A stretch of DNA of 64,000 nucleotides from an uncultured Candidatus Saccharibacteria bacterium (GTDB taxonomy: Bacteria > Patescibacteriota > Minisyncoccia > Portnoybacterales > UBA2143). The stretch is taken from the NCBI GenBank assembly GCA_964596615.1, contig CAZQUN010000001.1:66786-130785 (forward strand), written 5' to 3'. Shown piece by piece: positions 13,297 through 40,855 of this stretch (its first letter is position 1; every line of letters begins with the position of its first letter). The notes below the pieces were generated by a model, which was not told the DNA's origin, did not search any database, and worked only from the letters and a program-made list of their open reading frames with translations. The position numbers and the translations under genes were made by a program.

Positions 13297-13335
13297 ATTC
13301 TCTTAATAATACTCTTTATTTAACCTTTTTTCAAG

Positions 13336-13362
13336 ATAAAAAAACGAAGCCAAAGCCTCGTC
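13336..13362 (-). terminator. Intra-cluster rho-independent terminator followed by promoter-like TTGAAA-17-TATTAT
   Basis: Hairpin ACGAAGC-caaa-GCCTCGT followed by a U-run on the minus strand. This is the only gap longer than 60 bp in the 33-kb cluster. Confidence 0.4.
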
Positions 13363-13391
13363 TCTTGTAAAAATTATTCTGTTTTTTAGAC

Positions 13392-14342
13392 CTATTTTCT
13401 CTTATTAACCAACCCGTAAAAAAATCCTATTCCATAAGTTAAATGAGTTAAAATTATAGCGATAAAAATCAAAGGGCTCAAAACAAAATTAATTATTAAA
13501 CTGGTAATAATAATTATGATTAAATAGAAAGCCGTTAATAGCAAAAACATTTTAGCGATCATTAGAGACAAGAAGGAAAAAATCGTTCCAAAAACTAGAA
13601 AAAGAACAAAGGAAAAAGGAATGAAATAATAGAGTTTGTCAAAAGAAAAATCCTCTTTTATTACCCAGGCCTTATCCCGACTATAATTCCAAATCTGCCT
13701 TAAATGCGGTTTCCATAAATGACGCCTGTCATGGTAAACAACTGCTTCAGGAATATAGAGTACTTTTTTCCCCAATTTCCTAATATTAAAACAGAACTTA
13801 GCATCTTCGCCAGTCAAAAGCGTCTCATCAAAGCCATTAACTTTTAGAGCGTCTTTTCTTTTAACTATCAGATTACAAGAAGGCATTTCTTTAACCGGCA
13901 ATCCTTCTCTGAATTTTAATCTCAGCTTGTACCTTAGAGCAAAAGCGCCGCTAGCAATCGAGGAAGCAAAAATATATCCGCTGACTTTTTGGCCAATTGA
14001 GTTATCACTGGGAGTCAAATTAGGACCACCAACCGCACCGACATCATCTCTTTCAAAGTACCTCAAGGCAATTTTGAGCCAATCTTTGATTGGATAAGCA
14101 TCATCATCAACAAAAGCCAGGATTTCTCCTTTGGCTTTTTTTATAGCTATGTTTCTTTTTCTGGAAGGTTTAACTGGGCCGGTTTCAATAATCTTAATCT
14201 TATCACTACTTGGCTCGGTTGTTTTTTTATCCGGCAAAGCAATAATTTCAAAGTCCTTTTCAGATTGATTTAAGCAATGTTTAAAACATTTTCCTGCCTG
14301 AGCGCCAAATAGCGGGTATGGGATAATAATTGAAACCTTCAT
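13392..14342 (-). CDS. GT2 family glycosyltransferase
   Basis: N-terminal VSIIIPY..., DDD and DxD-like motifs, C-terminal TM helices. Confidence 0.7.
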   Translation of the reverse strand: MKVSIIIPYPLFGAQAGKCFKHCLNQSEKDFEIIALPDKKTTEPSSDKIKIIETGPVKPSRKRNIAIKKAKGEILAFVDDDAYPIKDWLKIALRYFERDDVGAVGGPNLTPSDNSIGQKVSGYIFASSIASGAFALRYKLRLKFREGLPVKEMPSCNLIVKRKDALKVNGFDETLLTGEDAKFCFNIRKLGKKVLYIPEAVVYHDRRHLWKPHLRQIWNYSRDKAWVIKEDFSFDKLYYFIPFSFVLFLVFGTIFSFLSLMIAKMFLLLTAFYLIIIIITSLIINFVLSPLIFIAIILTHLTYGIGFFYGLVNKRK

Positions 14343-15610
14343 ATGAATTTAATCTTTCTCATGGCGAAAATGACCATTTTTAACAAAATCCAGCCATGTC
14401 TGAATCGACTAATATTCGTTTCTCCGTAAATTCTTTCCTGGTATCTAATTGGCAAATCAACAATTTTCAGATTTAACTTAGCCGCTCCAAAAAGCATATC
14501 AAAATCACCAAAAGGATCAAAATCACCAAAAAACTTTCTCCCCTTCCTTATCCTTTGGTAGTCATCCCGCCACATAACTTTTGTCCCGCAAAGAGTATCT
14601 TTAATCCTTTGGTCTAAAAGCCAGGAAAACATTAAGCTAAAAAACTTATTCCCCAAAACATTCAAAAACCTCATTGATTCTTTTTCCAAAGGATAAACCA
14701 AACGACAGCCATTAATGAATTCTCCCCGGCCGCTGGTAATTGCTCGGTAAAACTTTCTTAATTCCTTTGGCCTAACTGTCATATCAGCATCTAAAATCAT
14801 TAAAATATCTTTTTTAGCGTTTCTGAAACCTTTTCTGACAGCATTGTATTTTCCTTTGCCATCCTGGACAAAAACCCTAATATTCTTATCAGAATATTTC
14901 TTTTTTACCCTTTTAATCTCTTCCAGAGTATTATCTTTTGAATCGCCTTCGACAAAAATGATTTCTGTTTCAGAACCAAGCATAGGGGTTTTTTGAACAA
15001 CCGGTTCAATATGGTCTTTTTCATTTCTGGTCGGGACAATTATTGAAACACTTGGTTTTTTCTTAATCAGCTTCTTTTCCGGTTGAGACCTAACTATGAA
15101 AAATTTTAACAAACAGAATTTTCTGATTAAAGGAAACCTTGATAAGAACCGGTTAAAAAAAGATGAAAGAAAAGGAATATATTTAGGAATTAAAAGGCGT
15201 TCCCCTTTTTTAACAACATCGAAACCGGCTAAATAGAGGAGGTTCTCAATATCAGAAGAAGCCAGCCAGTTCCGAAAGGGTTGTGGCCTTTTTAGACGGA
15301 AAAATTCAGCTAATTTCAAAACCGGCTCCCATAAATAATTGTGGTAAGTCAAAACTATTCTTGATCCGGGATTAACTACCCGGTGAAGCTGCTGGAGAGT
15401 TTTCTGAATATCTCTGGCAAAACTAATTAAATCAAGGGCAATAATATATTGATATTTTTTCCCTTTTTTCAATTGAATAGCTGGAATTTCTCCTTTAGAG
15501 CAATCTATTCTTAAAATTAAACTTTCTTTCGGAACCAAAAAGCCAAGAAGATTTTTAATCTCTTGATGATAATATTTATTCTTTTTTGCCCATTTATCTG
15601 GATTGTTCAT
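14339..15610 (-). CDS. GT2 polyprenyl-phosphate glycosyltransferase-like (DPM1/ArnC-like) with N-terminal extension
   Basis: SVSIIVPTRNEKDHI, DGKGKYNAVRKG, LDADMT motifs. Confidence 0.6.
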   Translation of the reverse strand: MNNPDKWAKKNKYYHQEIKNLLGFLVPKESLILRIDCSKGEIPAIQLKKGKKYQYIIALDLISFARDIQKTLQQLHRVVNPGSRIVLTYHNYLWEPVLKLAEFFRLKRPQPFRNWLASSDIENLLYLAGFDVVKKGERLLIPKYIPFLSSFFNRFLSRFPLIRKFCLLKFFIVRSQPEKKLIKKKPSVSIIVPTRNEKDHIEPVVQKTPMLGSETEIIFVEGDSKDNTLEEIKRVKKKYSDKNIRVFVQDGKGKYNAVRKGFRNAKKDILMILDADMTVRPKELRKFYRAITSGRGEFINGCRLVYPLEKESMRFLNVLGNKFFSLMFSWLLDQRIKDTLCGTKVMWRDDYQRIRKGRKFFGDFDPFGDFDMLFGAAKLNLKIVDLPIRYQERIYGETNISRFRHGWILLKMVIFAMRKIKFI

Positions 15611-16964
15611 CTAGATTAAAGTATCTCAAATATCGATAAACCCCATAAAAGAAAAGGATAAATAGAAATGGCTGGAATGGCAAGCGCAGCCGGGCCATGG
15701 CAGCCCAACTTGAGCCAAAAGCAATTAATCCGATAATAATTAACAGGACCAAACCGATTCGGCGTAAATCTCTTTTTTTTAACATCAAAATTGCGCCAAT
15801 TAAAGCAATTAAATTAATTAAAAGCCAAAAGCCAATACCAAAAATTCTGATTAAAAATATCTGATTGCCTTTCAAAGAAGAAGCCAAAGCTGAAAAATCT
15901 TTCTGAGTTAAAAGATTAGAAATATTGACTGAAACTGATTGGCCTAAGTCAATATTCCAAAAAGATAATATTCTTAGCCAGCCTGATTCGGTAAAAACAG
16001 GAATGGCTTTAATAATATGCCATTTTAAATATGTTAATGGCTGGGCTGTGACAACCGAGAAATTAATTTCTCTTAGAACTGGGATGTATTCGTCAACATA
16101 GCGTATTTGTTCAAAACTCTCAACGCCGGCTTTTTCAACAGCCAAGTTCTGTAAATATGCATCAGCCTGTTCCCGTGTCATTCCCTGGCTCAGGACTAAA
16201 TAGTCGCGGACTCCACCAAAAAAATACAGGAAATGATTAATATTGGAAATAGTATAGGTTCCGAACTGAACCTTATTCCTCATCATCCAAGGAGAAAGAA
16301 CTGCTAAAAATATGATTAAATAGACAATTAAGTATTTAACTAATTTAGGCCAACTCACTTTTTTCCAGAGGATAATGATGGTTGCAATTGCCAGAATCGG
16401 ATAAAAGAAAAGGGCAATCTGTCTGACAAAAGCTGCTAAAGCTAGAAAAACCGCTGACCAGATAATGAATTTCCATTTTTCTTTTTTCCAGAATAAGGCC
16501 AGAAGATAAACTGAGAGAATGAAGAAGAACATAAAAGGCGCCTCTGAAGAAGTGACATTGGATGAATAAAAGCTGAATGGCTCAAAAGCCATAAAAACCG
16601 CTGTTCCGATTGAAATGAAATTATTAAAGAAGAGGCGAGCGAACTTGTAAACGAAAACAATGAAAAATGAATAAATAATATTCTGCCAAAGAACAATAAA
16701 AAGATATTTGGGAATAATCAGCCAGGAAACAGCCATTAAAATCGGGTAGCCCGGAGCTGGATAAGAATGAGGGATTACTCCATCAGCACTGAAAATACCC
16801 TGGGTTAAAAAATTCAAACCGGCCTGAATATATCCATCCTGATCCTTGATAAAATTAATATCGCCCAATTTAAAAAAGGCGATGAGCATGTAAATTAGCC
16901 GAGGAATCAAAGCCAGAAAAAATAAAATAACAATTACCTTATTCTTTTTTATCCAGTTTTTCAT
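15594..16964 (-). CDS. GT-C fold glycosyltransferase (ArnT/PMT-like, GT39/GT83-like)
   Basis: About 12 TM helices, 456 aa, directly downstream of a DPM1/ArnC-like GT2 gene (classic lipid-P-sugar donor pair). Confidence 0.5.
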   Translation of the reverse strand: MKNWIKKNKVIVILFFLALIPRLIYMLIAFFKLGDINFIKDQDGYIQAGLNFLTQGIFSADGVIPHSYPAPGYPILMAVSWLIIPKYLFIVLWQNIIYSFFIVFVYKFARLFFNNFISIGTAVFMAFEPFSFYSSNVTSSEAPFMFFFILSVYLLALFWKKEKWKFIIWSAVFLALAAFVRQIALFFYPILAIATIIILWKKVSWPKLVKYLIVYLIIFLAVLSPWMMRNKVQFGTYTISNINHFLYFFGGVRDYLVLSQGMTREQADAYLQNLAVEKAGVESFEQIRYVDEYIPVLREINFSVVTAQPLTYLKWHIIKAIPVFTESGWLRILSFWNIDLGQSVSVNISNLLTQKDFSALASSLKGNQIFLIRIFGIGFWLLINLIALIGAILMLKKRDLRRIGLVLLIIIGLIAFGSSWAAMARLRLPFQPFLFILFFYGVYRYLRYFNLDEQSR

Positions 16965-17845
16965 TTAAATGAATTCTTAATTTCAATAGTTTGCTTAATT
17001 TTTCCTAAAAAAATCAGGGGAGAATAAAGCAGAACACTTGGCCTGAATCTGACCCATTTCAATATTATAAACCCGGTATAAAGAATCGCCAAGGGAAGGA
17101 TATAGAGATAAGCTATTAATAAGGAATTGGGCATTAGATAAGATAAATCCATTTTCATTCCTTTTCTCATTTTAACAGCATGTTTGCCGCAATGGGCCTG
17201 ATGGGCTAAAAAGCCCTTCAAATCATCCCGGTCATAATGACGAACAACTATATCTGATTTAAAATACAATTTCAGATTATTCTTCAGGGCCCGAAAACTG
17301 AATTCAGCATCTTCTCCACCATGTCCTAATTCTTCATTGAAATAGCCAATTTTTTCAAAAACACTCCTTTTAATTGAAAGATTATTGGTTGGGAAATGGA
17401 ATCTTTTGATATAGTAATCTTTGCTAAAAGGAACTGATGTCCACCAGCTGGAAAATGTATCAGCTGCTCCATAAATCGTCTTGTAAATTCCAACTACTCC
17501 CCCGCCAATTAAATCAGTCTCATTTTCCCTATGGGCTTGGACATGTCTTTTTATCCAATCCTTTTCAACCAAACTATCAGCATCGAGCAGAATAATTAAA
17601 TCTCCATCTGAATTCTTAATTCCGACATTCCTACTAAAAGCCGTCAACGACCTTGCTTGATTGGAATAGTATTTCAATCTTTTGTCTTTGATGCTTTCTA
17701 AAATCTCTAAGGTATTATCAGTTGATTTATCATCAACAACAATAACCTCAAAATTCTGATAATCATTTTCAAAAACACTCTCTAGGCATTCTCCAATTGT
17801 TTTTCCCATGTTATGAACCGGGATTATAAGACTAACTTTTCCCAT
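16961..17845 (-). CDS. GT2 family glycosyltransferase
   Basis: VSLIIPVHN...VVDDKSTDNT...LLDADS motifs. Confidence 0.7.
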   Translation of the reverse strand: MGKVSLIIPVHNMGKTIGECLESVFENDYQNFEVIVVDDKSTDNTLEILESIKDKRLKYYSNQARSLTAFSRNVGIKNSDGDLIILLDADSLVEKDWIKRHVQAHRENETDLIGGGVVGIYKTIYGAADTFSSWWTSVPFSKDYYIKRFHFPTNNLSIKRSVFEKIGYFNEELGHGGEDAEFSFRALKNNLKLYFKSDIVVRHYDRDDLKGFLAHQAHCGKHAVKMRKGMKMDLSYLMPNSLLIAYLYILPLAILYTGFIILKWVRFRPSVLLYSPLIFLGKIKQTIEIKNSFK

Positions 17846-18825
17846 TGTTTTGGATTTAAGAAAATATTATCGATTAAATTACAATTATGGTAGCAATAGC
17901 ATTCCTTTTGTTTAATACAATTCCTTTGCTCAATCGCCCTTTCTGATTTGAATAATTCCTTTAATTCTTTCTCCCTAATATTCCCATAGGGTTTTAACAT
18001 TTCGCAACTTGAAACATCGCCATTAGCATAAACAACCAGATGATGCTTCCAGGCCAGACAATCCGGAATTTGCCTCTTTTCCTTTATCACCCTTAAACTG
18101 GCATCAAAAGCTGTTCTCTGGTAATTCCTTAAAATTCTTCTTTCTAATGGCCCAAAGCCGTAATCATATTCTTTCCAAATGTCAAATATCTTATCTTTAA
18201 TCTTTAACAGCTCTTCATATGACGGGCGTCTTAAATTAGGATCTCTTGAAATTCCTCTCTGGATATTAATTGAATGAAAATCAACGCCTAACTTTTTAAC
18301 AAAATTCATCAAGTCAATTATTTCCCCGTAATTATCCTTTGAAAGGACGCTGGTAACTTTAACTCTAACTCCATCTATTTCTTTAAGTTTTCCAATTGTT
18401 TCAATCGCCTTGTTAAAAGTCCCTTCGCCTCTGATTGAATCATTGGTTTTTTCAAATCCATCTAATGAAACAGAAAGAACTATTTCAGCTTTTGTCCTTT
18501 CCTTGATTTTTTTAACCTGAGAACAAATTAATTCTCCATCAAAGCCATTGGTTGCAATGGCTATTGATTTAGTATCAAAGGTTGCGCAAATCTCATCTAA
18601 ATCATCTCTTAAAAATGGTTCTCCTCCGCCAATTTCCAGCCAGATTAATTTATCTAAATATTTTGAAATCCCTTTTATCTCTTCCAAGGTTAATTCTTTT
18701 CCTTTTAGATTATCAAAATCAACAAAACAAGTCCGGCATCTTAAATTACACCGGTTAGTAACATGAAGAATTAAATGAACCGGCTTATTAGAAAAAAAAG
18801 CGGATTTCAGTATTCTTTTTTTCAT
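17824..18825 (-). CDS. Radical SAM protein with SPASM/twitch-like C-terminal Cys motifs
   Basis: CNLRCRTCFV; IGGGEPFL; C-terminal CEMLKP...CYCYHNCN. Confidence 0.7.
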   Translation of the reverse strand: MKKRILKSAFFSNKPVHLILHVTNRCNLRCRTCFVDFDNLKGKELTLEEIKGISKYLDKLIWLEIGGGEPFLRDDLDEICATFDTKSIAIATNGFDGELICSQVKKIKERTKAEIVLSVSLDGFEKTNDSIRGEGTFNKAIETIGKLKEIDGVRVKVTSVLSKDNYGEIIDLMNFVKKLGVDFHSINIQRGISRDPNLRRPSYEELLKIKDKIFDIWKEYDYGFGPLERRILRNYQRTAFDASLRVIKEKRQIPDCLAWKHHLVVYANGDVSSCEMLKPYGNIREKELKELFKSERAIEQRNCIKQKECYCYHNCNLIDNIFLNPKQWEKLVL

Positions 18826-19928
18826 GAAATAAAGTTTAGAATATTTTCAGTTCTTTTCTGCCAGGAATATTTTTTAATATCTTCTCTGGCTTGTTTTGAA
18901 ATTCTCTCAGAAAGAGCTCCATCTTCTAAAACAATTTTAATTCCTTTGGCTAATTCTTCAGGATTATCTGGTTTAACTAAATATGAATTATTCTCATTCA
19001 AAACTTCTCTGATAGAAGGCAAATCAGAAGCGACAATTGGCCGATTACTGGCCATGTAGGTAAATAGCTTTAAAGGAGATGTCCAATATTGGGAAATCTT
19101 TTCTTTTCCTGAATTAGGCAAAACCAGAACATCAGCTGCTTTTTGATTAAAAGGCAGGTCTGTATAGGATAAATATCCAAGAAAAATGACATCAGGATAT
19201 TCTTTTTTAAGTTTTTCAACCTGTTCTTTAGTTCCGCCAATCATGACTAATTTAACTTCTTCGCTAAAAAACTTGGAAGATTCTAAAAGCGTCGAATATC
19301 CTTTCCATTCGTCAAAAAGCCCGGCGTAAAGAACAATCTTTTTATCTAAAGGCAGATTTAATTTTTCCCTTGCTTCTGTTTTTGATACTTCAATATTAAA
19401 ATCATTTAAATCAACTCCATCCGGAGCAACTAGAATCTTTTCTTCTGGAATTCCTTTTTCAATCAATTCGTTTTTTAATCCCTGGGTAATGGTAATAAGG
19501 CCTTTTGTTTTTTCTAAATCCTCTTTATTCAAACTTCTTGGTAATCTATGTATTTCGCAAAAAATATTCTCATCAGAAATACTTAAACGCTTGGCAAAGG
19601 AAATATCTCTTGTATAGATAATATTGGCTTCCTTTTTCTTTAAATATGACAAAACTGATTTAAGAAAACTTCTGCTTTGAAGCCAAAAGGAAATTCTTGG
19701 GACAAAAAATTGCATAAAATCTGTAATTTCCAAATATTTAATTTTAAAATTTTCTTCTTGGCCGTAATATTGCCAAACGCTTTCTTTTATCTCGTTTTTT
19801 CTTTTTGGAACAACTAATTCAACATTTAATCCAGCCAAAGCAAAATTCCGGCACATTTTCATGATTTGAATTCCATGCGCTTTTTCCGTCGGCATTCGAG
19901 TATTAGCAATGTAGATCAATTTTTTCAT
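18822..19928 (-). CDS. GT4 family glycosyltransferase
   Basis: GT-B fold; C-terminal EX7E-like region. Confidence 0.7.
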   Translation of the reverse strand: MKKLIYIANTRMPTEKAHGIQIMKMCRNFALAGLNVELVVPKRKNEIKESVWQYYGQEENFKIKYLEITDFMQFFVPRISFWLQSRSFLKSVLSYLKKKEANIIYTRDISFAKRLSISDENIFCEIHRLPRSLNKEDLEKTKGLITITQGLKNELIEKGIPEEKILVAPDGVDLNDFNIEVSKTEAREKLNLPLDKKIVLYAGLFDEWKGYSTLLESSKFFSEEVKLVMIGGTKEQVEKLKKEYPDVIFLGYLSYTDLPFNQKAADVLVLPNSGKEKISQYWTSPLKLFTYMASNRPIVASDLPSIREVLNENNSYLVKPDNPEELAKGIKIVLEDGALSERISKQAREDIKKYSWQKRTENILNFIS

Positions 19929-21349
19929 ATGCCTAAATATTTAATTCCGGCTTTAATTAAACTTTTCAAATCTGAAAATGACTCAACCTTTTTCAGCTTA
20001 TTCCACCCCTTTTTCCAAATATCTCCATCAGACAAATTCTTAACCATAAAGGCTTTAACTTTTTCTAATTCCATTCCTGACCATTCCATATATGGAACGC
20101 TGGGATCTTCTCCGGTAATTCTTGATTTCTTTCCTTGATAATGACTATTCCAGGAAAAATTGTTATCCAGGATTCCTTTTTTCTTAGCAATCCATTCTAT
20201 TTCTGTCCCTGGATAAATTAGGGCAAAACCATAGCTAGCTTCCACATTCTCATAACTCCTTAATTCTTTAATCAAATCAGCGCTCATTTTTAAATCTTCC
20301 ATTGTTTCATCGGGCAAATTGACAATAAAATTCAAGCTAACAATTAAACCAGCCTTTGAAGAAATTTGAACTGCTTTTCTGGTTTGTTCTAAAGTAATAT
20401 TCTTCTTAATTTCCTTCAAAATCCTTGGACTGCCGGATTCAATACCAAAACTGATTCTCCGACAACCGGCTTTTTTCATCATATTAATCATTTCCTCATC
20501 AACTGTATTGACCCTTGCCCGGGCGTACCATTTAATATCAAGCCCGCGATCAAGAATTTCCTGACAAATACCCATAACATGATTCTTTGAAACAGTTAAA
20601 GTATCATCCCAAAAATTAAAACCCTCAAATCCATATTTCTGATTCAAAAACTCTAACTCATCAACAAAATTCTTTGGAGTTCTTAAACGAAGAATTGATT
20701 TTGAAAAAGCAGCATTATCGCAGAAAACACATTGATTTGGACAGCCTCGGGCGCTAATGACTCCAATTGTCCGAAAATCAGTTCCATGAATCTTTTTCTG
20801 GTATCTATCTAAATCATACAAATACCAGGCTGGAAAAGGTAATTGGGACAAGTCTCTTAAAAAGGGCCTGTCCGGATTAGAAACAATTTCCCCGTTATCC
20901 CGATAGGTAATGCCTAAAACATTTTTCAGTTTTTCCCTCTCAGGCCAGGCATCTAAAAGTTCTTTAGCTGTAATTTCTCCTTCTCTTTTAACAACAACAT
21001 CAATTTCAGGGACAACCTCCAGAGCATTTTTATCGCTCAAAGAAAAATGAGGGCCACCAACCATAATCATCAAATCTGGCTTTTTCTTTTTTAAAAGTTT
21101 AATTACTGAAATAGCTTGGAGACGATTATGAGTTGTCGCAGTCAAACCGACAACTTCCGGAGAAAAGGATAAAATCTTTTTAACGGTTTCTTCCTGATTT
21201 AAATTTTCGCTATGCCCGTCAACAATGACAACATTATGATTACCTTTTTTTTCTAAATACGAAGCAACATAGCCAATGCTAAGAAATGGCAATCCTGCCA
21301 TTTCAATCTCTCCTAATGCTCTTGGTCCTGTGGCTAATACTATTTTCAT
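19925..21349 (-). CDS. Cobalamin-binding radical SAM enzyme (class B rSAM)
   Basis: B12-binding-like N-terminal domain (VVGLTATTH..MVGGPHFS) and ARGCPNQCVFC. Confidence 0.8.
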   Translation of the reverse strand: MKIVLATGPRALGEIEMAGLPFLSIGYVASYLEKKGNHNVVIVDGHSENLNQEETVKKILSFSPEVVGLTATTHNRLQAISVIKLLKKKKPDLMIMVGGPHFSLSDKNALEVVPEIDVVVKREGEITAKELLDAWPEREKLKNVLGITYRDNGEIVSNPDRPFLRDLSQLPFPAWYLYDLDRYQKKIHGTDFRTIGVISARGCPNQCVFCDNAAFSKSILRLRTPKNFVDELEFLNQKYGFEGFNFWDDTLTVSKNHVMGICQEILDRGLDIKWYARARVNTVDEEMINMMKKAGCRRISFGIESGSPRILKEIKKNITLEQTRKAVQISSKAGLIVSLNFIVNLPDETMEDLKMSADLIKELRSYENVEASYGFALIYPGTEIEWIAKKKGILDNNFSWNSHYQGKKSRITGEDPSVPYMEWSGMELEKVKAFMVKNLSDGDIWKKGWNKLKKVESFSDLKSLIKAGIKYLGI

Positions 21350-21355
21350 ATTATT

Positions 21356-22267: not shown

Positions 22268-22273
22268 ATACCT

Positions 22274-22921: not shown

Positions 22922-22922
22922 A

Positions 22923-27544: not shown

Positions 27545-27550
27545 AGGTCT

Positions 27551-29244: not shown

Positions 29245-29248
29245 AATA

Positions 29249-29428
29249 TTAATCCTTCCTATAAAGCCAGGTAACTCCGGCAATAACACCTAAAGAAACG
29301 ATAATATCAAACTCCAGGGCAATAATCTCCCTAAAATCTTTAACCTCTGAGAAATAGTAGATAATTTCGAAAATGAGAAAAAATATCATCAGAGACAAGA
29401 CTAAATAGTAGGCTGCTTTTTTATTCAT
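29249..29428 (-). CDS. 59-aa two-TM membrane mini-protein (MNKKAAYYLVLSLMIFFL...)
   Basis: Internal Met of the 94-aa ORF; its ATG overlaps the stop of the upstream rSAM gene as ATGA; hydrophobic. Confidence 0.4.
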   Translation of the reverse strand: MNKKAAYYLVLSLMIFFLIFEIIYYFSEVKDFREIIALEFDIIVSLGVIAGVTWLYRKD

Positions 29429-30885
29429 GTTTTTGTGACAAATCTTTTTGCTAATTTGTAATCCCAGGGAAAACCAAAAAACTTTAATTTCCATCTCATC
29501 TGGCAAAGCAGAACAAAAGGCAGTTTCAGCCATTTGGTTGCTTTAACAGTTGAACCAAGAGCGCTTTTAATTGAATGAGCGCCAAATCTGACATAGGCCT
29601 CCAATGACTCAACAAAATCAGGATTCTCCAGCCAGGGAAACCTGGAAACGTCTAAATAGTTTAATTGGTCTCTGGCTGTCTCTGACCATTCCTGAAGCGA
29701 TCTTGGTTCTTGCCAGCCGGACTGAAGGCATTCAGCATAAAGTTCGGAGCCAGGATAGGGCCGAAAAGCCTGAGGGCCTAAAATTTGAATCCTGTCGCCT
29801 AATTTAACCAACCGGTCAATTAATTTCAATGTTTCCATAACTTCATCTTTGGTTTCTCCCGGTAGGCCGGCCATAAAGGAATATTGGGGAATAATATCAT
29901 ATTTCAAGCACATCTCAGCTGAACGAAGCACATCTTCTGGATCAATATCCTTTTTAATTTTCTTAAGAATCCTCGGACAACCTGATTCAGCTCCAAAAGA
30001 TAAAAGATAGCAACCGGACTCTTTAATTTTCTTCAAAAATTCCTCATCAATCATTCCATCTTTTAAATAGTTAGCCCGAACGGTCGTCTCCCAAGGAATA
30101 ACTAAATCACTCTCAATCATGCCATTAATAATACCTTTAGCTCTTTTAATATCAACAAAGAAATTCTCATCCCAGAAACGAAGTTTCTTTCCTTTGAAAT
30201 ATGGACTGGTTTTAATGCTTCTAATATCCTCCAAAACCTGATCAACTGTTCTTGGTCGCCAATTACACTTTAAAATGGCGTTAATACAAAAAGCGCAGCG
30301 ATGAGGGCATCCTCTTGAAGTCAAGGAAGGAACCAGATACAAATCTTGAAGGATTTTTTCCGGCATTAATTCCCATTTGAACAAGGGCATTTGAGTTGGA
30401 TCATGTAATCCCTGAGACAAGCTTATCGCTATCTCCCCACCCTTTTTAAAGGCGATGCCTGATATCTGATTCAAGGACTTTTGATTAACAATATCAAGCA
30501 TGGGCAATTCCCCTTCCCCATAGCAGACAACATCAATTAAAGGATGTCTGGCGGTCTGGTCAGTAAAAAAGCTCGGATGAGGCCCACCCCAGATAATCTG
30601 ACATTCTGGATTAATTTCTTTAATTAATTCCGAGGCCTTAAGAGCAGCTGGAACTTGAGTGGTCATAACGGAGATTCCGGCAAAATTACAATCAGGAGCT
30701 TTTTCCTTAATTAAATTCAAATAGTTTTTCTGTCTGACACCGTCAATAATTTCAACATCAATTCCATTATCATTTAAATATGTGGCAATGCTCAAAAGCC
30801 CGACAGAAATGGAACTGTCGTAATTCTCTTTGTTAATATTAAATGGTGGATTAATGAGTAAAACTTTAGGCATTGAACAATTCAT
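29425..30885 (-). CDS. Cobalamin-binding radical SAM enzyme (class B rSAM)
   Basis: B12-binding-like N-terminal domain and SRGCPHRCAFC. Confidence 0.8.
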   Translation of the reverse strand: MNCSMPKVLLINPPFNINKENYDSSISVGLLSIATYLNDNGIDVEIIDGVRQKNYLNLIKEKAPDCNFAGISVMTTQVPAALKASELIKEINPECQIIWGGPHPSFFTDQTARHPLIDVVCYGEGELPMLDIVNQKSLNQISGIAFKKGGEIAISLSQGLHDPTQMPLFKWELMPEKILQDLYLVPSLTSRGCPHRCAFCINAILKCNWRPRTVDQVLEDIRSIKTSPYFKGKKLRFWDENFFVDIKRAKGIINGMIESDLVIPWETTVRANYLKDGMIDEEFLKKIKESGCYLLSFGAESGCPRILKKIKKDIDPEDVLRSAEMCLKYDIIPQYSFMAGLPGETKDEVMETLKLIDRLVKLGDRIQILGPQAFRPYPGSELYAECLQSGWQEPRSLQEWSETARDQLNYLDVSRFPWLENPDFVESLEAYVRFGAHSIKSALGSTVKATKWLKLPFVLLCQMRWKLKFFGFPWDYKLAKRFVTKT

Positions 30886-31504
30886 CTAATGAATTAATTA
30901 CAGCAAGAGAATGCTTTTTTAAATCAAGAGTATGTTCTCCTCTTTCCAGATGGATAAAATCAGCCCCGGCATTCTTGGCGTAAAGAGCATCTTCATTGCT
31001 ATTACCGATATAGAGGGTTTCTTTTGGTTTAATTTTCATCTCTTTTAAAACAAAATGAAAGCTTTTTGGATCTGGTTTTTCTTTGTGTTTGCTTTCGAAT
31101 ATAGATAGGTAGAAGTCATAAGGAGCACCATTTATTTTTTTAATCTCAAAATTCGCGATTCTGTCAGGAGCGCCTGTGATAATAGAGACCAATTTATCAT
31201 GCTTTTTTAACTTTTTAAATCCCGGTTCAACATCCTGATAGGCTTTAGTAAATCTAGCTCTTTCCCTGGCTTTATCGTTCTTTCTAAAGGCGGGCCAGAA
31301 AACAAAGGGGTCAAGACCGAATTCATCTTTAATTATTTTATCCCTTCCTGTTTCAAACCAAAATCTGTTTACAGAATTACTGTCTCCGACTTTTCCTCCT
31401 AATTCCTTTACTGTTTTCGAAACAACCCGATGCCTATACTCTGGTAGGGTATAGACTAACGTTCCATCTAAATCAAATGAAATATGCTTGTATTTTTCAA
31501 TCAT
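30866..31504 (-). CDS. HAD superfamily hydrolase/phosphatase
   Basis: ISFDLDGTLV motif I; C-terminal GNSNEDAL...AG. Confidence 0.7.
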   Translation of the reverse strand: MIEKYKHISFDLDGTLVYTLPEYRHRVVSKTVKELGGKVGDSNSVNRFWFETGRDKIIKDEFGLDPFVFWPAFRKNDKARERARFTKAYQDVEPGFKKLKKHDKLVSIITGAPDRIANFEIKKINGAPYDFYLSIFESKHKEKPDPKSFHFVLKEMKIKPKETLYIGNSNEDALYAKNAGADFIHLERGEHTLDLKKHSLAVINSLDELFNA

Positions 31505-32655
31505 ACTTTCTCAAAGACACTTATCGTCTCCCTAATCAAATTATCCCAATTAAATCTTTTTAAATCCTCTTTAGCTTTTTCAACAAACCCGTTAGCTAAA
31601 TCGGAATTATCCAAAACCTTTCCAATCGCCCCTATCCACTCTTCCTTATCCCTATACCCAACCAGAATTCCAGTTTGATTATCCTTAATTGTTTCTAGAT
31701 TCCCACCAGCCGGAGTAGTAATAATTGGAATACCAGCTTTCATAGCTTCTAAAAGCAAATGAGACATGCCTTCATAATTAGTATTTAAAAGGAAAACATC
31801 GGCTAAAGACAAGTAATCAATAACTTGCTGACGGCTGGCCTTGCCGGTAAAGACAACATTATTCTCCAATTTAAGATTTTTGGTTAATTGCTTTAAATTT
31901 TCTGACTCCGGACCCTGGCCAACAACAACCAGTTTGATTTCTCCGTGTTTCTTAATCAAATCCGGCACAATTTCAATTAGCATGTCAATTCCTTTCCAGG
32001 GAACCAATCGGGCAATAGTTAAAAGAATTTTTCCTTCCAAATCCGCTTTTTGCTTTAACTCTTCTTTCCCAGCTGAGGGATTCATTTCAAAAAAATCAAT
32101 TGAATTGTAAATGACTTTAATTTTTTCTTCCGGCAAACCAATCTTTAAGGCAACCTCTTTTAAGAAATTACTGGCAACAATAATTTTGTCCGAATTAACC
32201 AGTATTTTCTTTCTGATTTTTTTCCTTTTTTCAACCTTTGGAGAATATTTCTTTTCCTGGAAAACCATAATATCATCAGAGACAATTTTTTCAGCAGATG
32301 ACTTCTCCCAGGCTGAATCACCGACAAACCGGGTAACTAATCTCTTTCCTAAAACCTTTTTAATAATTAAACTGGTTAGTCCGGCAGTATACAAATCTTG
32401 GCTGTATAAGATATCTGTTCTCAGTCCATACCAAAGACCCCATTTGAGGTAGATAAAGCTCTTTAAAAATCCAGGCCAGAGATTAGAAACTCTTTTGACC
32501 GGATAAGGATATTTATCTTTGCTCTTACCAAAAGTCAAAACCCTGACTTTAAAACCATTCTTAATCAAATCCTTAGCTAAAGGATCCAAAAAAGCACTCG
32601 GTCCGCCAATATCAGGCGGGAAAACTCCTGATAAGATTAAAATTCTTTTGCTCAT
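31501..32655 (-). CDS. GT4 family glycosyltransferase
   Basis: GT-B; EGMSHLLLEAMKAGIPIITT. Confidence 0.7.
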   Translation of the reverse strand: MSKRILILSGVFPPDIGGPSAFLDPLAKDLIKNGFKVRVLTFGKSKDKYPYPVKRVSNLWPGFLKSFIYLKWGLWYGLRTDILYSQDLYTAGLTSLIIKKVLGKRLVTRFVGDSAWEKSSAEKIVSDDIMVFQEKKYSPKVEKRKKIRKKILVNSDKIIVASNFLKEVALKIGLPEEKIKVIYNSIDFFEMNPSAGKEELKQKADLEGKILLTIARLVPWKGIDMLIEIVPDLIKKHGEIKLVVVGQGPESENLKQLTKNLKLENNVVFTGKASRQQVIDYLSLADVFLLNTNYEGMSHLLLEAMKAGIPIITTPAGGNLETIKDNQTGILVGYRDKEEWIGAIGKVLDNSDLANGFVEKAKEDLKRFNWDNLIRETISVFEKV

Positions 32656-33806
32656 AATTGATTGAAGGCCTCTTCCATTTTCAAAGCAATATTATCCCAG
32701 TTGTATTTCTCCCTAACTAATTCTAAACCATTTTTAATTAATTTCTCTCTCAATAAGTCATCTTCTAAAACTTCCTTAACTTTCTGAGCGATACTTTCAG
32801 GGCTTTTTGGCTGACAAAACAATCCGGTCTCTCTGTCAATCAGAAAATCAGGAATTCCGCCAACTGGCGTTCCAATAATTGGCAAACCGGTTGCCATGGC
32901 TTCCAAAAAAACATTGCCCAATCCTTCGGAAACTGAAGGCCGGACAAAAACATCAGCTAGATAATAGTATTTAACAATTTCCTTATGATCCATATGGCCC
33001 AAGAATTTAATCTTATCCTCAAGATTCAACTCTTTAACCAAGTTCCTTAATTTCTTCTCTTCCGGGCCAATATCAATAATTAAAATCTTAAAAGGGAAAT
33101 CAAGGTATTGCCCGGCTTTGATTAAATCATCAACTCCATTCTTTTTAACTAATCTTGAAACAGTTAGAATTATTTTTTCTCCTGAAACAATTCCTGATTT
33201 TTCCTCCGGTCTTTTCGGTCTAAACAAATCCAAATCAACTCCATTGGGAATAATTTTAATCGGAACTCTGTCATTGTTTTTTAAAGCTCTTTTTTTCAGA
33301 TGACTACTGATGACTGTAATAGCATCGGCATTTTTAAAGGAAAGCAGATGCCAGGGTTTAATTAAAATCTGGTAAAGAAATTTAATTCCAAAAACATATC
33401 TTTCCAAATGCTCTTCTGGATCACCTTCTTGGATAGTTAAAAGCAGTTTCTTGCCTTTGCTTGAGAATTTAAAGAATACTGCTGCCACTCCGGCTTGAGA
33501 AGCCATAATTGACCAGATTATTGAGTAATCCCTTTTCTTATCCAATTGAACCACTTTTAAAACTCCTAGAATAGGGAGAAGAAATTTATCTAAAATATTC
33601 AGACCAAAGCCGGTCCGATAAATATTAACATTGTCTATTTTCTCAAATTTAGCCAGTTTTGGGCTAATTCTAGCTGTAATCAAATCAAACTGCCAATCGG
33701 GCAGCCTTTGGGTGATTTCTCTGACGGCAATTTCCGCTCCGCCGGTCAAAGGAAGATAGGCAGTCGAGAAAATGAGAATAGTTTTTTTGGCTTGATTGCT
33801 AGCCAT
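32652..33806 (-). CDS. GT4 family glycosyltransferase
   Basis: GT-B; EGLGNVFLEAMATGLPIIGT. Confidence 0.7.
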   Translation of the reverse strand: MASNQAKKTILIFSTAYLPLTGGAEIAVREITQRLPDWQFDLITARISPKLAKFEKIDNVNIYRTGFGLNILDKFLLPILGVLKVVQLDKKRDYSIIWSIMASQAGVAAVFFKFSSKGKKLLLTIQEGDPEEHLERYVFGIKFLYQILIKPWHLLSFKNADAITVISSHLKKRALKNNDRVPIKIIPNGVDLDLFRPKRPEEKSGIVSGEKIILTVSRLVKKNGVDDLIKAGQYLDFPFKILIIDIGPEEKKLRNLVKELNLEDKIKFLGHMDHKEIVKYYYLADVFVRPSVSEGLGNVFLEAMATGLPIIGTPVGGIPDFLIDRETGLFCQPKSPESIAQKVKEVLEDDLLREKLIKNGLELVREKYNWDNIALKMEEAFNQL

Positions 33807-33830
33807 ATCTATGTTTTAATATATAATAGA

Positions 33831-34958
33831 ATGGCGAAAAAATCAATCCTATACATTATTACCAAATCAGTCTGGGGCGGCGGCAACCGCTATGTTTTTG
33901 ATTTGGCTACTGCTTTAAAAAAAGAAAATCACCGGGTTTTTATCGCTGCTGGCGGAAAAGAAAGATTCTACCAGGAAATTAACAAAACCGACATCCCATA
34001 TTTCAACATTAACGGTTTTCAAAGAACCGTTAATTCTTTTAAGGATATTTTTGCTTTTTTTGAAATTCTAAGCTTGATTCTTCAATTAAAGCCGGAAGTC
34101 ATTCACACCAATAGCCCTAAGGTCGGAGGAATTGCCGGCTTGGCTGGTTGGATTTACAAATTTTTCTCACATCAAAAAACCAAATTAATCTATACTCCTC
34201 ATGGCTGGGCTTTTTCAGAAGACCGACCCCAATGGCAAATTTCATTAATTAAATTATTCAGCAAATTAACCTGTCTTTTTTACGATAAAATTATCTGTGT
34301 TTCGGAGCACGATAAGAGAAACGCCCTTAAAAACAATATCGCGCCTGAGAATAAATTAATTACAATCCATAACGGACTTCGTCCAGTATCATTTTTAGAA
34401 AAAAAACAAGCCCAGGAAAAATTAATCCAAAAAACCCCTCCTTTAGTTATTGGAACAATTGCTGAATGGACTAAAAACAAAGGACTTTTCTATCTCTTAA
34501 AAGCAATTAAAGAAATTGACAAGGAATTTGAATTAATCATGATTGGCAGCGGAGAGAACCCGGATAAAGAGAAAATGCATCAATATATTAAAAAGAATGA
34601 ATTAAAAAATGTTCATTTAATTGAATGGATTGACAATGCTTCTCAATATTTAAAGGCTTTTGACATTTTTATCCTTCCCTCAATTAAAGAGGGCCTGCCT
34701 TATACAATTCTTGAGGCCTCGGCAGCTGAAATTCCGATTATCACTACTCCAATCGGAGGTATCCCGGAAATAATTAAAAATAATGTTAATGGTCTTTTGG
34801 TTCAACCAAAAAACAGCCAACAACTGGCTGAAAAGATAAAATACTTGATTAATAATCCGGAGAAAATTAAAGAATTAACTCGAAAAGCAAAAGAAAAGGC
34901 AGAAAAAGAATTTAGTTTGGAAAAAACAATAGAAAAGACAAAAGGATTGTATGCCTAG
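33831..34958 (+). CDS. GT4 family glycosyltransferase (start at MAKKSILYII)
   Basis: GT-B; EGLPYTILEASAAEIPIITT. Diverges from the 32652..33806 gene with only 24 bp between the two start codons. Confidence 0.7.
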   Translation: MAKKSILYIITKSVWGGGNRYVFDLATALKKENHRVFIAAGGKERFYQEINKTDIPYFNINGFQRTVNSFKDIFAFFEILSLILQLKPEVIHTNSPKVGGIAGLAGWIYKFFSHQKTKLIYTPHGWAFSEDRPQWQISLIKLFSKLTCLFYDKIICVSEHDKRNALKNNIAPENKLITIHNGLRPVSFLEKKQAQEKLIQKTPPLVIGTIAEWTKNKGLFYLLKAIKEIDKEFELIMIGSGENPDKEKMHQYIKKNELKNVHLIEWIDNASQYLKAFDIFILPSIKEGLPYTILEASAAEIPIITTPIGGIPEIIKNNVNGLLVQPKNSQQLAEKIKYLINNPEKIKELTRKAKEKAEKEFSLEKTIEKTKGLYA

Positions 34959-34967
34959 GAGGAAAGT

Positions 34968-35237
34968 ATGTTCTTTAATAAGGAAAAGATTAAGTTTTTT
35001 CGCCAAAATTGGAAACTAAGCGTACATCTACTTCTCAGAACAAAGTATTTTGGCGTTAATAATCAGTGGCGGTCAAGTTTTCCGTCAATATTCGGATGGC
35101 CCTGGTGGAAGATATTTCTGAGTGTCATCACCATTTATCCGATTATCCTAAACTATCGGCGAACTAAGTGGAGAGCAAAACATGTACATTTCCTACATCC
35201 CACAATCATTGAAACATTGGGGTGGAATAAAAAATAG
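34968..35237 (+). CDS. Hypothetical 89-aa Trp-rich small protein
   Basis: Strong SD (GGAGG 6 nt upstream of the ATG), immediately after the GT4 stop, followed by a terminator. Confidence 0.4.
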   Translation: MFFNKEKIKFFRQNWKLSVHLLLRTKYFGVNNQWRSSFPSIFGWPWWKIFLSVITIYPIILNYRRTKWRAKHVHFLHPTIIETLGWNKK

Positions 35238-35276
35238 CCTTTCGTTAAAAAAACCAACAAAAGGCTGTTTTAATAC
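35238..35276. terminator. Bidirectional rho-independent terminator
   Basis: AGCCTTT-loop-AAAGGCT hairpin flanked by T/A runs, between convergent genes. Confidence 0.5.
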
Positions 35277-37544
35277 TTACTTTCCAAACTTTCCAGCTAA
35301 AACATCGTTGATAAAGGCCTCGGCCTGTTCAACATAGCTGCCGCCGAATTCTTTGACCTTTTCGGCGGTTTTAATTGCTTCCTGACGCTGACCTAAATGA
35401 GCGTAGGACAAAGCCAGATTAACCCAGTAGTCCGGATTTTGAGGAGATATCTCAAGTAATTCCTGGTAAATCCTTAAAGTCCATTGATACTGCTCAGCAT
35501 GAATTGCTGAATTAGCCATTCTTGTCAGCTTGTCTTCTGTGCGCCAATTAAGGCCAAGTTCATCCATTCTGTCTAAATAGAGTTGAACCTGATCAGATTG
35601 GTCAACAAGATAAAGAATCATAATCATATTAAGGTATGATTCTATTACTTCAGGATTTAAGGCAATTGCTTTTTCCATGTTGACTATGGCCTGTTGGCGA
35701 AGCTGTTCGGCCTTATTCGTTTCCCCTATAGTCTGATAATATCTTCCTAAATAGAATTGACTGTAGCCAGCCTCCGTATATATCTGAGGCCTGGTCGGGC
35801 TTATCTTAGCTACCCTTTCAAAAAGGACCAATGCCTTGACTAAGTGTTCTGGATTTTGACCGCGGGTATTATTCAGGAATCTCATAAACATCAGGTAGTT
35901 CCGGGCGCTTAGAGGCCTCTCCTCTATCTGTTTCTCAAGCTCCTGTTCTACTCTAATAGCGCTTTGATTAAGCCAGCTTCCGCTAATGCCTGGCTCTTTT
36001 AATGCTCCATCGACAAACTCAGCAAAATGCTGCCGATATTCCTGATTACCATGGGTTTCCCTGTCTAAAACACTAACAAACTGGGTGTTGGCTTCCTGAT
36101 ACTTTTTAAGGTAAATCATCTCCATTGCTTTAATCAGCCCCCGATTGGCTGAGGCCGGCTTAATATTAAAGGTAAACAGAACTGGCAAATAGATTATGAT
36201 GCCAATGACTAATAGGGTTAAATAGATTTTTTTCGATTGGGAAAATCTTCCAGGCCACTTGGGGCTGTAACGGGATAAATATCCCAAGACCAGGAAAAGG
36301 GGAATATATGTCACCAGAGATTCAAAAATGAAGAGGTTCTGGATAAAATAGGCGAGCATGACCAGACTGAGAATAACCGGGATCAGGTATTGTTCCCTCT
36401 TTTTCTTGCGGAAATAGACCCAAAGATAAACCAAAGGAACAATCAACAAGCTCAAATACAAAGACAAACCAATTATTCCCCCTGTAATCAAACGATCAAA
36501 AACAATATTATGAGCTCGGTCAAACCAGATAACCGAACCTGCTTTTCTGTAAATCTGAGGTTCAAAATATTTATCAAAAACCTTGTAAAAACTCTCGTAG
36601 CCGTATCCCAGGATCGGTTTCTCCTTAAATCCTCTCAAGGACGATTTCCAGGTCAAAAGCCTGTTCTCGGCTGTAGTATCAGAAAAGGAAATACTAACAA
36701 CTCTTCTTAAGGTCCCGTTTTTCTTAACCCAGGTAGCATCTTTATTGGCAAAAACTATCCCGGTAAAAATTATTCCCAAAAGCAAGATAATAATGCCGGT
36801 ATTTCTAATCATCTTGTTCTCCTTCAAATGAAAGAAAGCTAAATAGAAAATGAAAATGAATAATGAAAAACTCAAGGAAAGAATAGCGCCTCGAGTCAGG
36901 GTATTCATGGTAATAAATATCTGTAAAAGAATACCAAGGATATAGTACCAGCGAAGATATTTGTTTTTTCTGGAGAAAAATAATATTAAGCCAAAGAAAA
37001 TATTGAAGATTAGATACCCGGCAACGTAGCCCGGATTACCAATAGTCGAAGCCAGCCTTGCTCCGGCAGCTGAAGCCAGAATCCATCCCAGATTAAGATA
37101 CTGACCCAAAGCAAACAAACTAACTAAAATACTACTAATAAAACTGGCCTCAAAAAGAACGAGCCAGTTTTTAGCTTTATGCAGAAATCCAGTCAGGACG
37201 AATAAATAGAGGAAGAGATGGAGCAATAAAAGTAATCCTTCGCTCCTTTCATTGTTAGACCAAAAACTGAAATAGAAGCCGTCATTTATCAAAGAAGAAG
37301 CAAAAACAATGATGATATACAAAAAGAACAAAACTAAAACCAAATTCAGCTTTGGCCGGTATTCTTTTTTAATCACTGCCAAGCCCAAAAAAAGCAAAAA
37401 CAGGACCTCTGTCACAATCTTGAAAATCAGTGTCTTTGGAACAATGTAGGGGAAATAATAGCTGCTGTTAAGAAAAACAGGAATAAGGGTAACAGCAACC
37501 AAACCAACCCAAATAGAATATTTTAATGCTTTTTCCATATTCAT
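35277..37544 (-). CDS. O-antigen ligase/polymerase-like (Wzy_C) membrane protein fused to C-terminal TPR repeats
   Basis: About 12 TM helices in the N-terminal 470 aa; a TPR-like helical repeat region follows. Confidence 0.6.
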   Translation of the reverse strand: MNMEKALKYSIWVGLVAVTLIPVFLNSSYYFPYIVPKTLIFKIVTEVLFLLFLGLAVIKKEYRPKLNLVLVLFFLYIIIVFASSLINDGFYFSFWSNNERSEGLLLLLHLFLYLFVLTGFLHKAKNWLVLFEASFISSILVSLFALGQYLNLGWILASAAGARLASTIGNPGYVAGYLIFNIFFGLILFFSRKNKYLRWYYILGILLQIFITMNTLTRGAILSLSFSLFIFIFYLAFFHLKENKMIRNTGIIILLLGIIFTGIVFANKDATWVKKNGTLRRVVSISFSDTTAENRLLTWKSSLRGFKEKPILGYGYESFYKVFDKYFEPQIYRKAGSVIWFDRAHNIVFDRLITGGIIGLSLYLSLLIVPLVYLWVYFRKKKREQYLIPVILSLVMLAYFIQNLFIFESLVTYIPLFLVLGYLSRYSPKWPGRFSQSKKIYLTLLVIGIIIYLPVLFTFNIKPASANRGLIKAMEMIYLKKYQEANTQFVSVLDRETHGNQEYRQHFAEFVDGALKEPGISGSWLNQSAIRVEQELEKQIEERPLSARNYLMFMRFLNNTRGQNPEHLVKALVLFERVAKISPTRPQIYTEAGYSQFYLGRYYQTIGETNKAEQLRQQAIVNMEKAIALNPEVIESYLNMIMILYLVDQSDQVQLYLDRMDELGLNWRTEDKLTRMANSAIHAEQYQWTLRIYQELLEISPQNPDYWVNLALSYAHLGQRQEAIKTAEKVKEFGGSYVEQAEAFINDVLAGKFGK

Positions 37545-37545
37545 G

Positions 37546-38232: not shown

Positions 38233-38257
38233 AATAATCTAATAATACACAACCAAC

Positions 38258-38292: not shown

Positions 38293-38324
38293 TAAAGGTA
38301 TACCAAATATTTAACCATTAATAT

Positions 38325-40851: not shown

Positions 40852-40855
40852 TAAA

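Follow-up and report, generated by a model that had tools for sequence, protein, structure and literature searches.

The surface-layer (S-layer) glycosylation (slg) loci of Gram-positive bacteria offer the closest described parallel to the locus reported here, which lies in a 64,000-nt stretch of contig CAZQUN010000001.1 (the window) from an uncultured bacterium of the candidate phyla radiation (CPR, or Patescibacteria). At its centre is a minus-strand gene at 35277..37544 for a 755-aa protein in which a Wzy_C membrane domain is fused to C-terminal tetratricopeptide repeats (TPR), and which we refer to as Wzy_C-TPR. In the slg loci a Wzy_C domain occurs in WsaB and WsfB, the predicted oligosaccharyl:S-layer-protein transferases; WsfB shares a C-terminal TPR with PglL, WsaB has none and is preceded by the small TPR gene wsaA, and the locus of Paenibacillus alvei also holds an AsnB (asparagine synthase) homologue (PMC2943079). 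In the case of pglL, the gene often adjoins that of its target in the same orientation (PMC3643930). Our analysis suggests that the window carries a CPR version of a system for the O-glycosylation of surface-layer proteins, in which Wzy_C-TPR is the candidate O-oligosaccharyl:protein transferase and a neighbouring 1207-aa secreted protein, not the pilins, is the likely target; we put the probability of this reading at roughly one half. It is the best available reading because the locus matches the Gram-positive S-layer glycosylation loci and its gene order is conserved, and the same parallel means that the mechanism itself is not new.

The resemblance to the slg loci lies in domain layout and gene context as these have been described. 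In Geobacillus stearothermophilus NRS 2004/3a (WsaA/WsaB) and P. alvei (WsfB), TPR come either at the C-terminus of the Wzy_C protein or on a small protein encoded just upstream, and the locus analysed here has both. In those loci, as here, the gene stands beside many glycosyltransferases (GTs), methyltransferases and an AsnB homologue in a monoderm organism that lacks lipopolysaccharide (LPS). An earlier note on this DNA had reasoned from the Wzy_C family to protein O-oligosaccharyltransferases (O-OTases) and proposed that the cluster may glycosylate proteins. Published S-layer O-OTases do show Wzy_C together with TPR or an adjacent TPR protein (PMC2943079), and the link to surface proteins is strengthened by synteny in 29 of 29 loci; pilins find no favour as the target, and transfer to protein is as yet a proposal. 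Unlike the slg loci, the locus holds its surface-protein gene within the same operon-like array, together with a pair of genes for a sigma factor of the extracytoplasmic function (ECF) type and a DUF5667 protein, an arrangement kept across CPR classes. Export also appears to be of the Wzx type here rather than of the ABC type (Wzm/Wzt), three B12-binding radical S-adenosylmethionine (SAM) enzymes and two SPASM radical-SAM enzymes are present, and no initiating transferase resembling WsaP/WbaP was found in the window.

Wzy_C-TPR is encoded by the last gene of this array, all of it on the minus strand. In the sense of transcription, the array begins with the ECF-type sigma-70 factor (167 aa, 45591..46094; Pfam Sigma70_r2 and r4) and the DUF5667 membrane protein (250 aa, 44794..45546; Pfam DUF5667 at 39 bits, one transmembrane (TM) segment), possibly an anti-sigma-like partner. 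It continues with three secreted proteins of 1207 aa (40908..44531), 287 aa (39746..40609) and 447 aa (38325..39668), and ends with a membrane-anchored TPR protein of 228 aa (TPR228, 37546..38232; Pfam TPR_1/2/8/16, N-terminal TM segment), which we regard as a WsaA-like partner, and Wzy_C-TPR. A single nucleotide separates the TPR228 stop codon from the Wzy_C-TPR start, and a hairpin with a 13-bp stem and a T-run (35236..35266, minus strand) directly past the Wzy_C-TPR stop marks the end of the operon. Every open reading frame (ORF) listed in the earlier note was found where it had been placed, all on the minus strand, and the system reaches beyond the 14339-37544 range given there to cover at least 684..46094. 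That note had put the Ser/Thr-rich secreted proteins immediately downstream of the Wzy_C gene; they do lie beside it, at higher coordinates and thus upstream in transcription, with TPR228 in between.

Conservation of this arrangement was assessed by searching the window proteins against six-frame ORFs of 80 species-level loci, complemented by the annotated contigs of three homologues with their 10-kb flanks. Full-length homologues of the 755-aa protein number more than 600, virtually all of them from Patescibacteria/CPR and the closest named ones from Candidatus Portnoybacteria; scanning one genome per species located relatives in 224 genomes of that group. Upstream counts were made over the 29 loci in which Wzy_C-TPR is at least 35% identical and at least 7 kb of upstream sequence is available, and downstream counts over 31 loci. 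Upstream and on the same strand, the 1207-aa protein has a homologue in every one of the 29 loci, and homologues of TPR228 (24 of 29), the sigma factor (24 of 29) and the DUF5667 protein (22 of 29) usually accompany it. Downstream, a convergent GT4 gene on the opposite strand recurs in 26 of 31 loci and the next GT4 gene in 24 of 31, usually followed by a B12-radical-SAM gene and further GT4 genes whose order (GT4a, GT4b, B12-rSAM, GT4c) is kept. The syntenic loci carry the names Portnoy-, Buchanan-, Falkow-, Doudna- and Komeilibacteria and Parcubacteria group, and the gene order is alike in a Kuenenbacteria locus at 29% identity, under the 35% cutoff. As the terminal gene of their array, with the link preserved in all 29 related loci, Wzy_C-TPR is thus tied to the secreted Ser/Thr-rich proteins as the earlier note had supposed.

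The assignment of the 755-aa protein to the Wzy_C family is firm. Pfam Wzy_C (PF04932) matches aa 204-364 at 67.9 bits against a cutoff of 31.7, with the result unchanged when the N-terminal 620 aa are searched alone, and a C-terminal TPR is also detected, so that the fusion described in the earlier note stands. The domain matches have E-values of 1e-9 to 1e-19 and are not chance. Confidence is high in the AlphaFold2 model derived from 55 homologues (pLDDT 91.3, pTM 0.86), in which 13 TM helices are accompanied by a large loop at residues 267-346 and by a TPR superhelix, helical throughout and ~290 residues long (about aa 466-750), that far exceeds the TPR detected by Pfam. Short Lys/Arg-rich loops alternate with uncharged ones along the sequence, a pattern that places the N-terminus inside the cell and the 267-346 loop and TPR domain outside, and both the catalytic loop and the TPR domain are accordingly predicted to be extracytoplasmic. 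The protein thus has the WaaL-like polytopic fold, in which a large extracytoplasmic loop precedes the final TM helices. Three residues, R218, R295 and H345, show no variation or reach at least 90% conservation among 16-55 homologues and pair in a profile alignment with R224, R298 and H349 of PDB 9rmk, whose residue numbering agrees with that of Neisseria meningitidis PglL. The catalytic Arg/Arg/His set has been reported as R215/R288/H338 in Escherichia coli WaaL and R224/R298/H349 in N. meningitidis PglL (PMC3643930).

Finer comparison does not place the protein with either PglL or WaaL. The equivalents of PglL P313 and G316/G318 are conserved in Wzy_C-TPR, with G313 and G315 invariant, yet WaaL of Cupriavidus metallidurans has G-x-G there too; the position of PglL Q178 is an invariant Asn (N170) in the Wzy_C-TPR family, and that of N180 is Ala, Pro or Gly. 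A profile comparison of PglL with WaaL, which the earlier note had proposed as a check, ended in a near tie that does not discriminate, the TM-core profile scoring 53 bits against WaaL 7tpg and 44.5 bits against the PglL-type OTase 9rmk among PDB sequences. WaaL was the only match, and a weak one, in a single-sequence phmmer search, and WaaL 7tpg/7tpj is the closest solved structure. With PglL (Neisseria) and PilO/TfpO, the locus has in common the Wzy_C core, the Arg/Arg/His set, the adjacency and shared orientation of the presumed target gene, and acceptor regions of low complexity rich in Ser, Thr and Ala. It differs from PglL in the undetected PglL_A motif, the residues equivalent to Q178 and N180, the larger TPR domain, the monoderm host and a neighbour that is a 1200-aa Ig-like array instead of a pilin.

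The proposed main glycan acceptor is the 1207-aa protein, whose signal peptide ends in ALA|VD and which has a pI of 4.2 and a Ser+Thr content of 22.8%. In its AlphaFold2 model (pLDDT 83) the N-terminal domain is alpha/beta and leads into a series of beta-sandwich domains, joined by Thr/Pro- or Ser/Ala-rich linkers of low model confidence; a fold search with this model returned generic Ig-like arrays, with an archaeal S-layer further down the list. The family to which it belongs is CPR-only, 1185-1297 aa long and wholly unannotated; we take it for a putative S-layer-like protein. Neither Pfam nor NCBIfam gave a match to any of the three secreted proteins (1207, 447 and 287 aa), which all bear N-terminal signal or anchor segments and have a pI of ~4.1-4.2 and 21-25% Ser+Thr, compared with 9.4% in the other proteins of the window. 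The 447-aa protein has a Gly/Thr-rich, mucin-like linker. The acidic 287-aa protein (20.6% Ser+Thr) contains an internal duplication of 95 aa, seen by TRF as a 285-bp tandem repeat at 39929..40471 with 77% identity. A domain of ~135 aa, without a Pfam match, is shared between the C-terminus of the 447-aa protein (aa 311-446, 38328..38738) and the N-terminus of the 1207-aa protein (aa 34-170, 44022..44432) at 67% identity over 138 aa. In relatives one or two neighbouring proteins also bear it, and in four distant loci (L047, L049, L051 and L053) it sits on the protein directly downstream of Wzy_C-TPR, making it a candidate anchoring or recognition module.

In the mechanism that we envisage, a lipid-linked oligosaccharide would be built in the cytoplasm by about ten Leloir GTs (six GT4, three GT2 and one GT9), tailored by SAM-dependent and B12-radical-SAM methylases, an AsnB-type amidotransferase and a deacetylase, and flipped across the membrane by a Wzx-like MOP protein. 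Wzy_C-TPR would then move the glycan en bloc onto hydroxyl residues in the 1207-aa protein; its two smaller Ser/Thr-rich neighbours would probably be glycosylated too. The TPR superhelix and the co-translated TPR228 may hold the protein acceptor beside the catalytic loop, while a trio of GT2, flippase-like protein and PMT_2 enzyme could add sugars outside the membrane from a polyprenyl-phosphate sugar. Support for O-glycosylation comes from the tight spacing of TPR228 and Wzy_C-TPR followed by the terminator-like hairpin, from candidate acceptors that are secreted, acidic and rich in Ser and Thr with a mucin-like Gly/Thr linker in one of them, and from the failure to find polymer machinery, whether an LCP ligase, a Wzz/PCP co-polymerase, an ABC exporter or LPS genes, anywhere in the 64 kb or in the 10-kb flanks annotated for the three relatives.

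Several observations weigh against this assignment. Sequence and fold together do not tell an O-OTase from a glycan ligase or polymerase, in line with the published view that ligases and protein O-OTases are inseparable by simple sequence comparison (PMC3643930). PglL_A (PF15864) and Wzy_C_2 (PF11846) were not matched by the full protein at E<=0.001 or by aa 1-620 at E<=10, and PF11846 is precomputed on just 2 of 120 homologues. Polysaccharide export machinery, too, contains TPR domains; an example is PgaA, a weak NCBIfam match here. No initiating phosphoglycosyl transferase was found in the window, and that the surface proteins are glycoproteins is something we infer. Conserved Ser/Thr-rich linkers were considered as a glycosylation signature of the 1207-aa family and rejected, the linkers being variable and acidic in some relatives. 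Wzy_C-TPR paralogues below 35% identity mostly lack Ser/Thr-rich neighbours and the surrounding gene context, so that the Ser/Thr-rich linkage is confined to one orthologous group. Finally, the Wzy-clan proteins WpaA and WpaB of Bacillus anthracis have been implicated in the synthesis of the cell-wall polysaccharide that anchors the S-layer (PMC6030368).

This last precedent leads to the strongest competing explanation, in which Wzy_C-TPR is the polymerase or ligase of a secondary cell-wall glycopolymer or membrane-anchored lipoglycan that the neighbouring cluster produces and on which the surface proteins are anchored without being substrates; we consider it a serious possibility, if a minority one. 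The Wzy_C family contains polymerases as well as ligases that sequence does not separate, WpaA and WpaB belong to the same Pfam clan (CL0499) and are proposed polymerases or ligases of the secondary cell-wall polysaccharide, required for S-layer assembly (PMC6030368), and TPR domains are known in polysaccharide secretion proteins. A large and variable GT cluster resembles polysaccharide loci, and the 135-aa domain is common to the 1207-aa protein and its neighbours, and present just downstream of Wzy_C-TPR in the four distant loci, as an anchoring module would be. Although WpaA and WpaB thus tie a Wzy-clan membrane protein to S-layer assembly in a monoderm (PMC6030368), they represent another Pfam family, PF13425, which aa 1-620 of Wzy_C-TPR do not match in Pfam at E<=10 and which contrasts with the PF04932 match obtained here; they also have no reported TPR and are not in an operon with the S-layer gene. 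No LCP ligase, Wzz/PCP protein or tyrosine-kinase co-polymerase was found in the window or the annotated flanks, the roughly eleven different GTs would suggest a long non-repeating oligosaccharide and not a short repeat that is polymerised, and Wzy_C with TPR and an upstream small TPR gene are reported features of S-layer O-OTases. Relatives of the 447-aa protein bear an extra bacterial SH3_3 domain, a typical peptidoglycan binder, which would provide an anchoring route independent of the glycan. None of the missing co-polymerase and LCP genes, the PF04932 match or the TPR layout is decisive.

A further possibility assigns protein glycosylation to the GT-C enzyme of a module at 12376..17845 on the minus strand. 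This module, delineated from Pfam, NCBIfam and PDB matches, comprises a GT2 (16961..17845), a PMT_2 GT-C (15594..16964), a methyltransferase-GT2 fusion (14339..15610), a second plain GT2 (13392..14342) and a flippase-like protein (12376..13296; TIGR00374 at 90 bits, cutoff 43.2). The earlier note had described a DPM1/ArnC-like GT2 followed by an ArnT/PMT-like GT-C. The likeness holds for the 423-aa fusion protein: its GT2 domain (aa 189-317, Pfam 79 bits) finds its best NCBIfam matches in AglJ (104.6 bits, below cutoff), a haloarchaeal Dol-P-hexose transferase, and ArnC, and its best PDB matches in the Pyrococcus Dol-P-Man synthase (DPMS) 5mlz and ArnC. The ArnC-type build does not, as the protein has an N-terminal methyltransferase-like domain (aa 47-134) and no TM helix, unlike ArnC and GtrB. 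The flanking GT2s at 13392 and 16961 have one hydrophobic segment each and resemble other GT2 subfamilies. The GT-C protein (456 aa, ~8-10 TM helices) scores 36.3 bits to PMT_2 (cutoff 26.1) and 24.4 to PMT (cutoff 22.7), and its gene adjoins that of the GT2, overlapping it by 17 nt; on the coding strand the GT-C gene comes first, which reverses the order previously described.

These matches permit a scheme like the Ppm1/Pmt O-mannosylation of actinobacteria, in which the PMT_2 enzyme would glycosylate proteins with a polyprenyl-phosphate hexose made by the AglJ/DPMS-like GT2 and Wzy_C-TPR would be otherwise employed. Both PMT_2 and PMT score above their cutoffs, the nearest relatives of the adjoining GT2 are Dol-P-Man synthase, AglJ and ArnC, a flippase-like protein is encoded close by, and a different PMT_2 gene lies directly past Wzy_C-TPR in a 73%-identical relative (L001/L007). 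We nevertheless judge the scheme unlikely: PMT_2 is a broad GT-C family that uses lipid and glycan acceptors, and this member found no PDB sequence match and a sole, weak NCBIfam match; its position and presence vary among relatives while Wzy_C-TPR stays fixed beside the surface proteins; and the GT2 lacks the membrane anchor of GtrB and ArnC. The trio also fits three-component side-branch glycosylation. Such decoration of existing glycans is widespread, and the ArnC/ArnT-like pair is more likely a candidate side-decoration system of this kind. As in GtrA/GtrB/GtrC, ArnC/ArnE-F/ArnT, CsbB/GtcA/YfhO and Ppm1/Pmt, the genes for a GT2 similar to polyprenyl-phosphate-sugar synthases, for a flippase candidate and for a GT-C enzyme are neighbours. 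The fusion of the GT2 to a methyltransferase-like domain and its want of a TM helix set it apart, and the flippase candidate is of the MprF/TIGR00374 type where the three-component systems have GtrA or ArnE/F; no GtrA was found alongside the GT2/GT-C module. The EamA/DMT transporter at 21356..22267 (41 bits, ~10 TM helices), which the earlier note had taken for the flippase, exists as described and is the weakest candidate for that role, the Wzx-like MOP protein (1450..2820) and the TIGR00374 protein being better ones.

Still less probable is that Wzy_C-TPR acts as a PglL/PilO-type glycosylase on type IV pilins, even though PglL and PilO belong to the Wzy_C family and the window has three N_methyl pilin-like genes (56623..58122). 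These genes lie ~19 kb from the Wzy_C gene, not the 15 kb previously estimated, and in a separate gene group; among the 80 related loci a pilin homologue occurs within 10 kb of Wzy_C-TPR in a single one (L015), which undoes the suggested pilin link. The PglL_A motif is not matched, and the neighbour that is conserved is the 1200-aa surface protein. Adjoining the pilin genes we also noted two further radical SAM genes and a secreted protein with PKD/Ig domains (60543..62383 and 58199..59281, both minus strand), together with a weakly prepilin-peptidase-like membrane protein at 59338..60546.

CPR bacteria are monoderms without LPS, and the notion that Wzy_C-TPR is a WaaL ligase joining O-antigen to lipid A-core is effectively refuted: its nearest solved structure is WaaL (C. 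metallidurans, 7tpg/7tpj; 12 TM helices, no TPR) and a GT9 gene of the 'heptosyltransferase family' lies in the cluster, but all close homologues come from Patescibacteria/CPR, in which the lipid A-core acceptor is nonexistent, the 64 kb hold no lpx, kdt or outer-membrane genes, the GT9 falls under equivalog cutoffs, and the LPS setting in which the earlier note would have preferred WaaL does not apply to a group that lacks LPS.

Surface-protein O-glycosylation, if it is borne out, would have consequences beyond this locus. CPR bacteria form a large and mostly uncultivated group and live attached to other cells, and to our knowledge almost nothing is known of the molecules on their surface; the literature that we searched held nothing relevant on S-layer glycosylation or O-antigen ligases in CPR. 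The locus nominates a CPR-only family of ~1200 aa as the major, S-layer-like surface protein, and with it a specific likely transferase and a specific gene cluster from which the glycan would derive, conserved over several CPR classes, which makes CPR surface glycosylation directly testable. More tentatively, and with odds that we consider clearly below even, the module of sigma factor, DUF5667 protein, ~1200-aa Ig-like-array protein, small TPR protein, Wzy_C-TPR and GT4-B12-rSAM genes might encode the principal S-layer glycoprotein across much of the CPR with its dedicated O-oligosaccharyltransferase, acting with a glycan that contains unusual sugars, C-methylated or otherwise rearranged by B12-dependent radical SAM chemistry. 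If so, it would provide a first molecular handle on the surface where the ultra-small CPR episymbionts meet their hosts.

The putative glycan source is a minus-strand operon of ~33 kb (684..33806) that lies past the Wzy_C-TPR terminator and a GT4 gene on the plus strand (33708..34958; Pfam Glycos_transf_1 and Glyco_transf_4), which is convergent with Wzy_C-TPR, divergent from the operon and probably has its true start near 33834. The first half of the operon (17824..33806, Pfam) encodes five GT4s, an HAD phosphatase, two B12-binding radical SAM proteins, the AsnB-type amidotransferase (491.8 bits, above the TIGR01536 cutoff), a polysaccharide deacetylase, three methyltransferases, the EamA transporter and one radical SAM/SPASM protein. 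Beyond the three-component-type module, the distal part, delineated with Pfam and NCBIfam as 684..12379, adds a second radical SAM/SPASM protein, an SDR epimerase, a methyltransferase, a phosphodiesterase, a 432-aa unknown protein, a B12-binding radical SAM protein, a 594-aa membrane protein (3910..5694), the GT9, the Wzx-like MOP flippase and a further methyltransferase. In total the operon has five GT4s (six with the convergent one), three GT2s, one GT9 and the PMT_2 GT-C, or ten Leloir GTs including the convergent GT4, as well as five SAM methyltransferases, three B12-binding radical SAM proteins and two SPASM radical SAM proteins.

The density of radical SAM genes is unusually high for a glycan cluster, with B12-binding members at 29425..30885, 19925..21349 and 5640..7112 and SPASM members at 17824..18825 and 11288..12379. 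Orthologues of the protein at 29425..30885 are 64-73% identical in loci whose other genes are at ~40% (e.g. L005, L028, L041, L044 and L059), and this excess over the rest of the locus suggests strongly constrained chemistry. The best NCBIfam match is HpnJ-like and far under its cutoff. The GT9 (2777..3913, minus strand) scores 115.9 bits to heptosyltransferase II, below the cutoff of 134.6, and its presence in a monoderm CPR cluster hints at a heptose or related sugar in the glycan. The 594-aa protein combines ~10-12 TM helices with a soluble C-terminal domain of 190 aa, and its 21 homologues are all from CPR and all unannotated; it gave no Pfam, NCBIfam or PDB-profile match, and hhalign against the Wzy_C core returned a probability of only 35%. 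Perhaps it is a polymerase or GT-C enzyme that has gone unrecognised.

The junction at which Wzy_C-TPR meets the convergent GT4 varies among loci in what has been inserted there. In the window it spans 320 bp (34958..35277) with an 89-aa ORF on the plus strand (34968..35237); in relatives it is occupied by the PMT_2 gene (L001/L007), a B12-radical-SAM gene (L003) or an IS200-like Y1_Tnp gene (L005), and DUF3800 genes occur just past the GT4. Within the array, a GC-rich hairpin with a T-run, terminator- or attenuator-like, lies directly past the stop codon of the 1207-aa gene (40859..40875, minus strand), and the 287-aa protein ends in a Cys-x9-Cys...W motif. Just upstream of the start of the sigma gene (46094), an 11-bp unit (TAATAAGGAAT) is repeated in about six tandem copies (46121..46185) and may be a regulatory site. 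Rfam returned two tRNAs only, with no riboswitch in the locus: a normal tRNA-Lys (46912..46987) and, adjoining it, a tRNA-Met (CAT) at 46809..46898 on the minus strand that is called at 87-90 nt, longer than standard.

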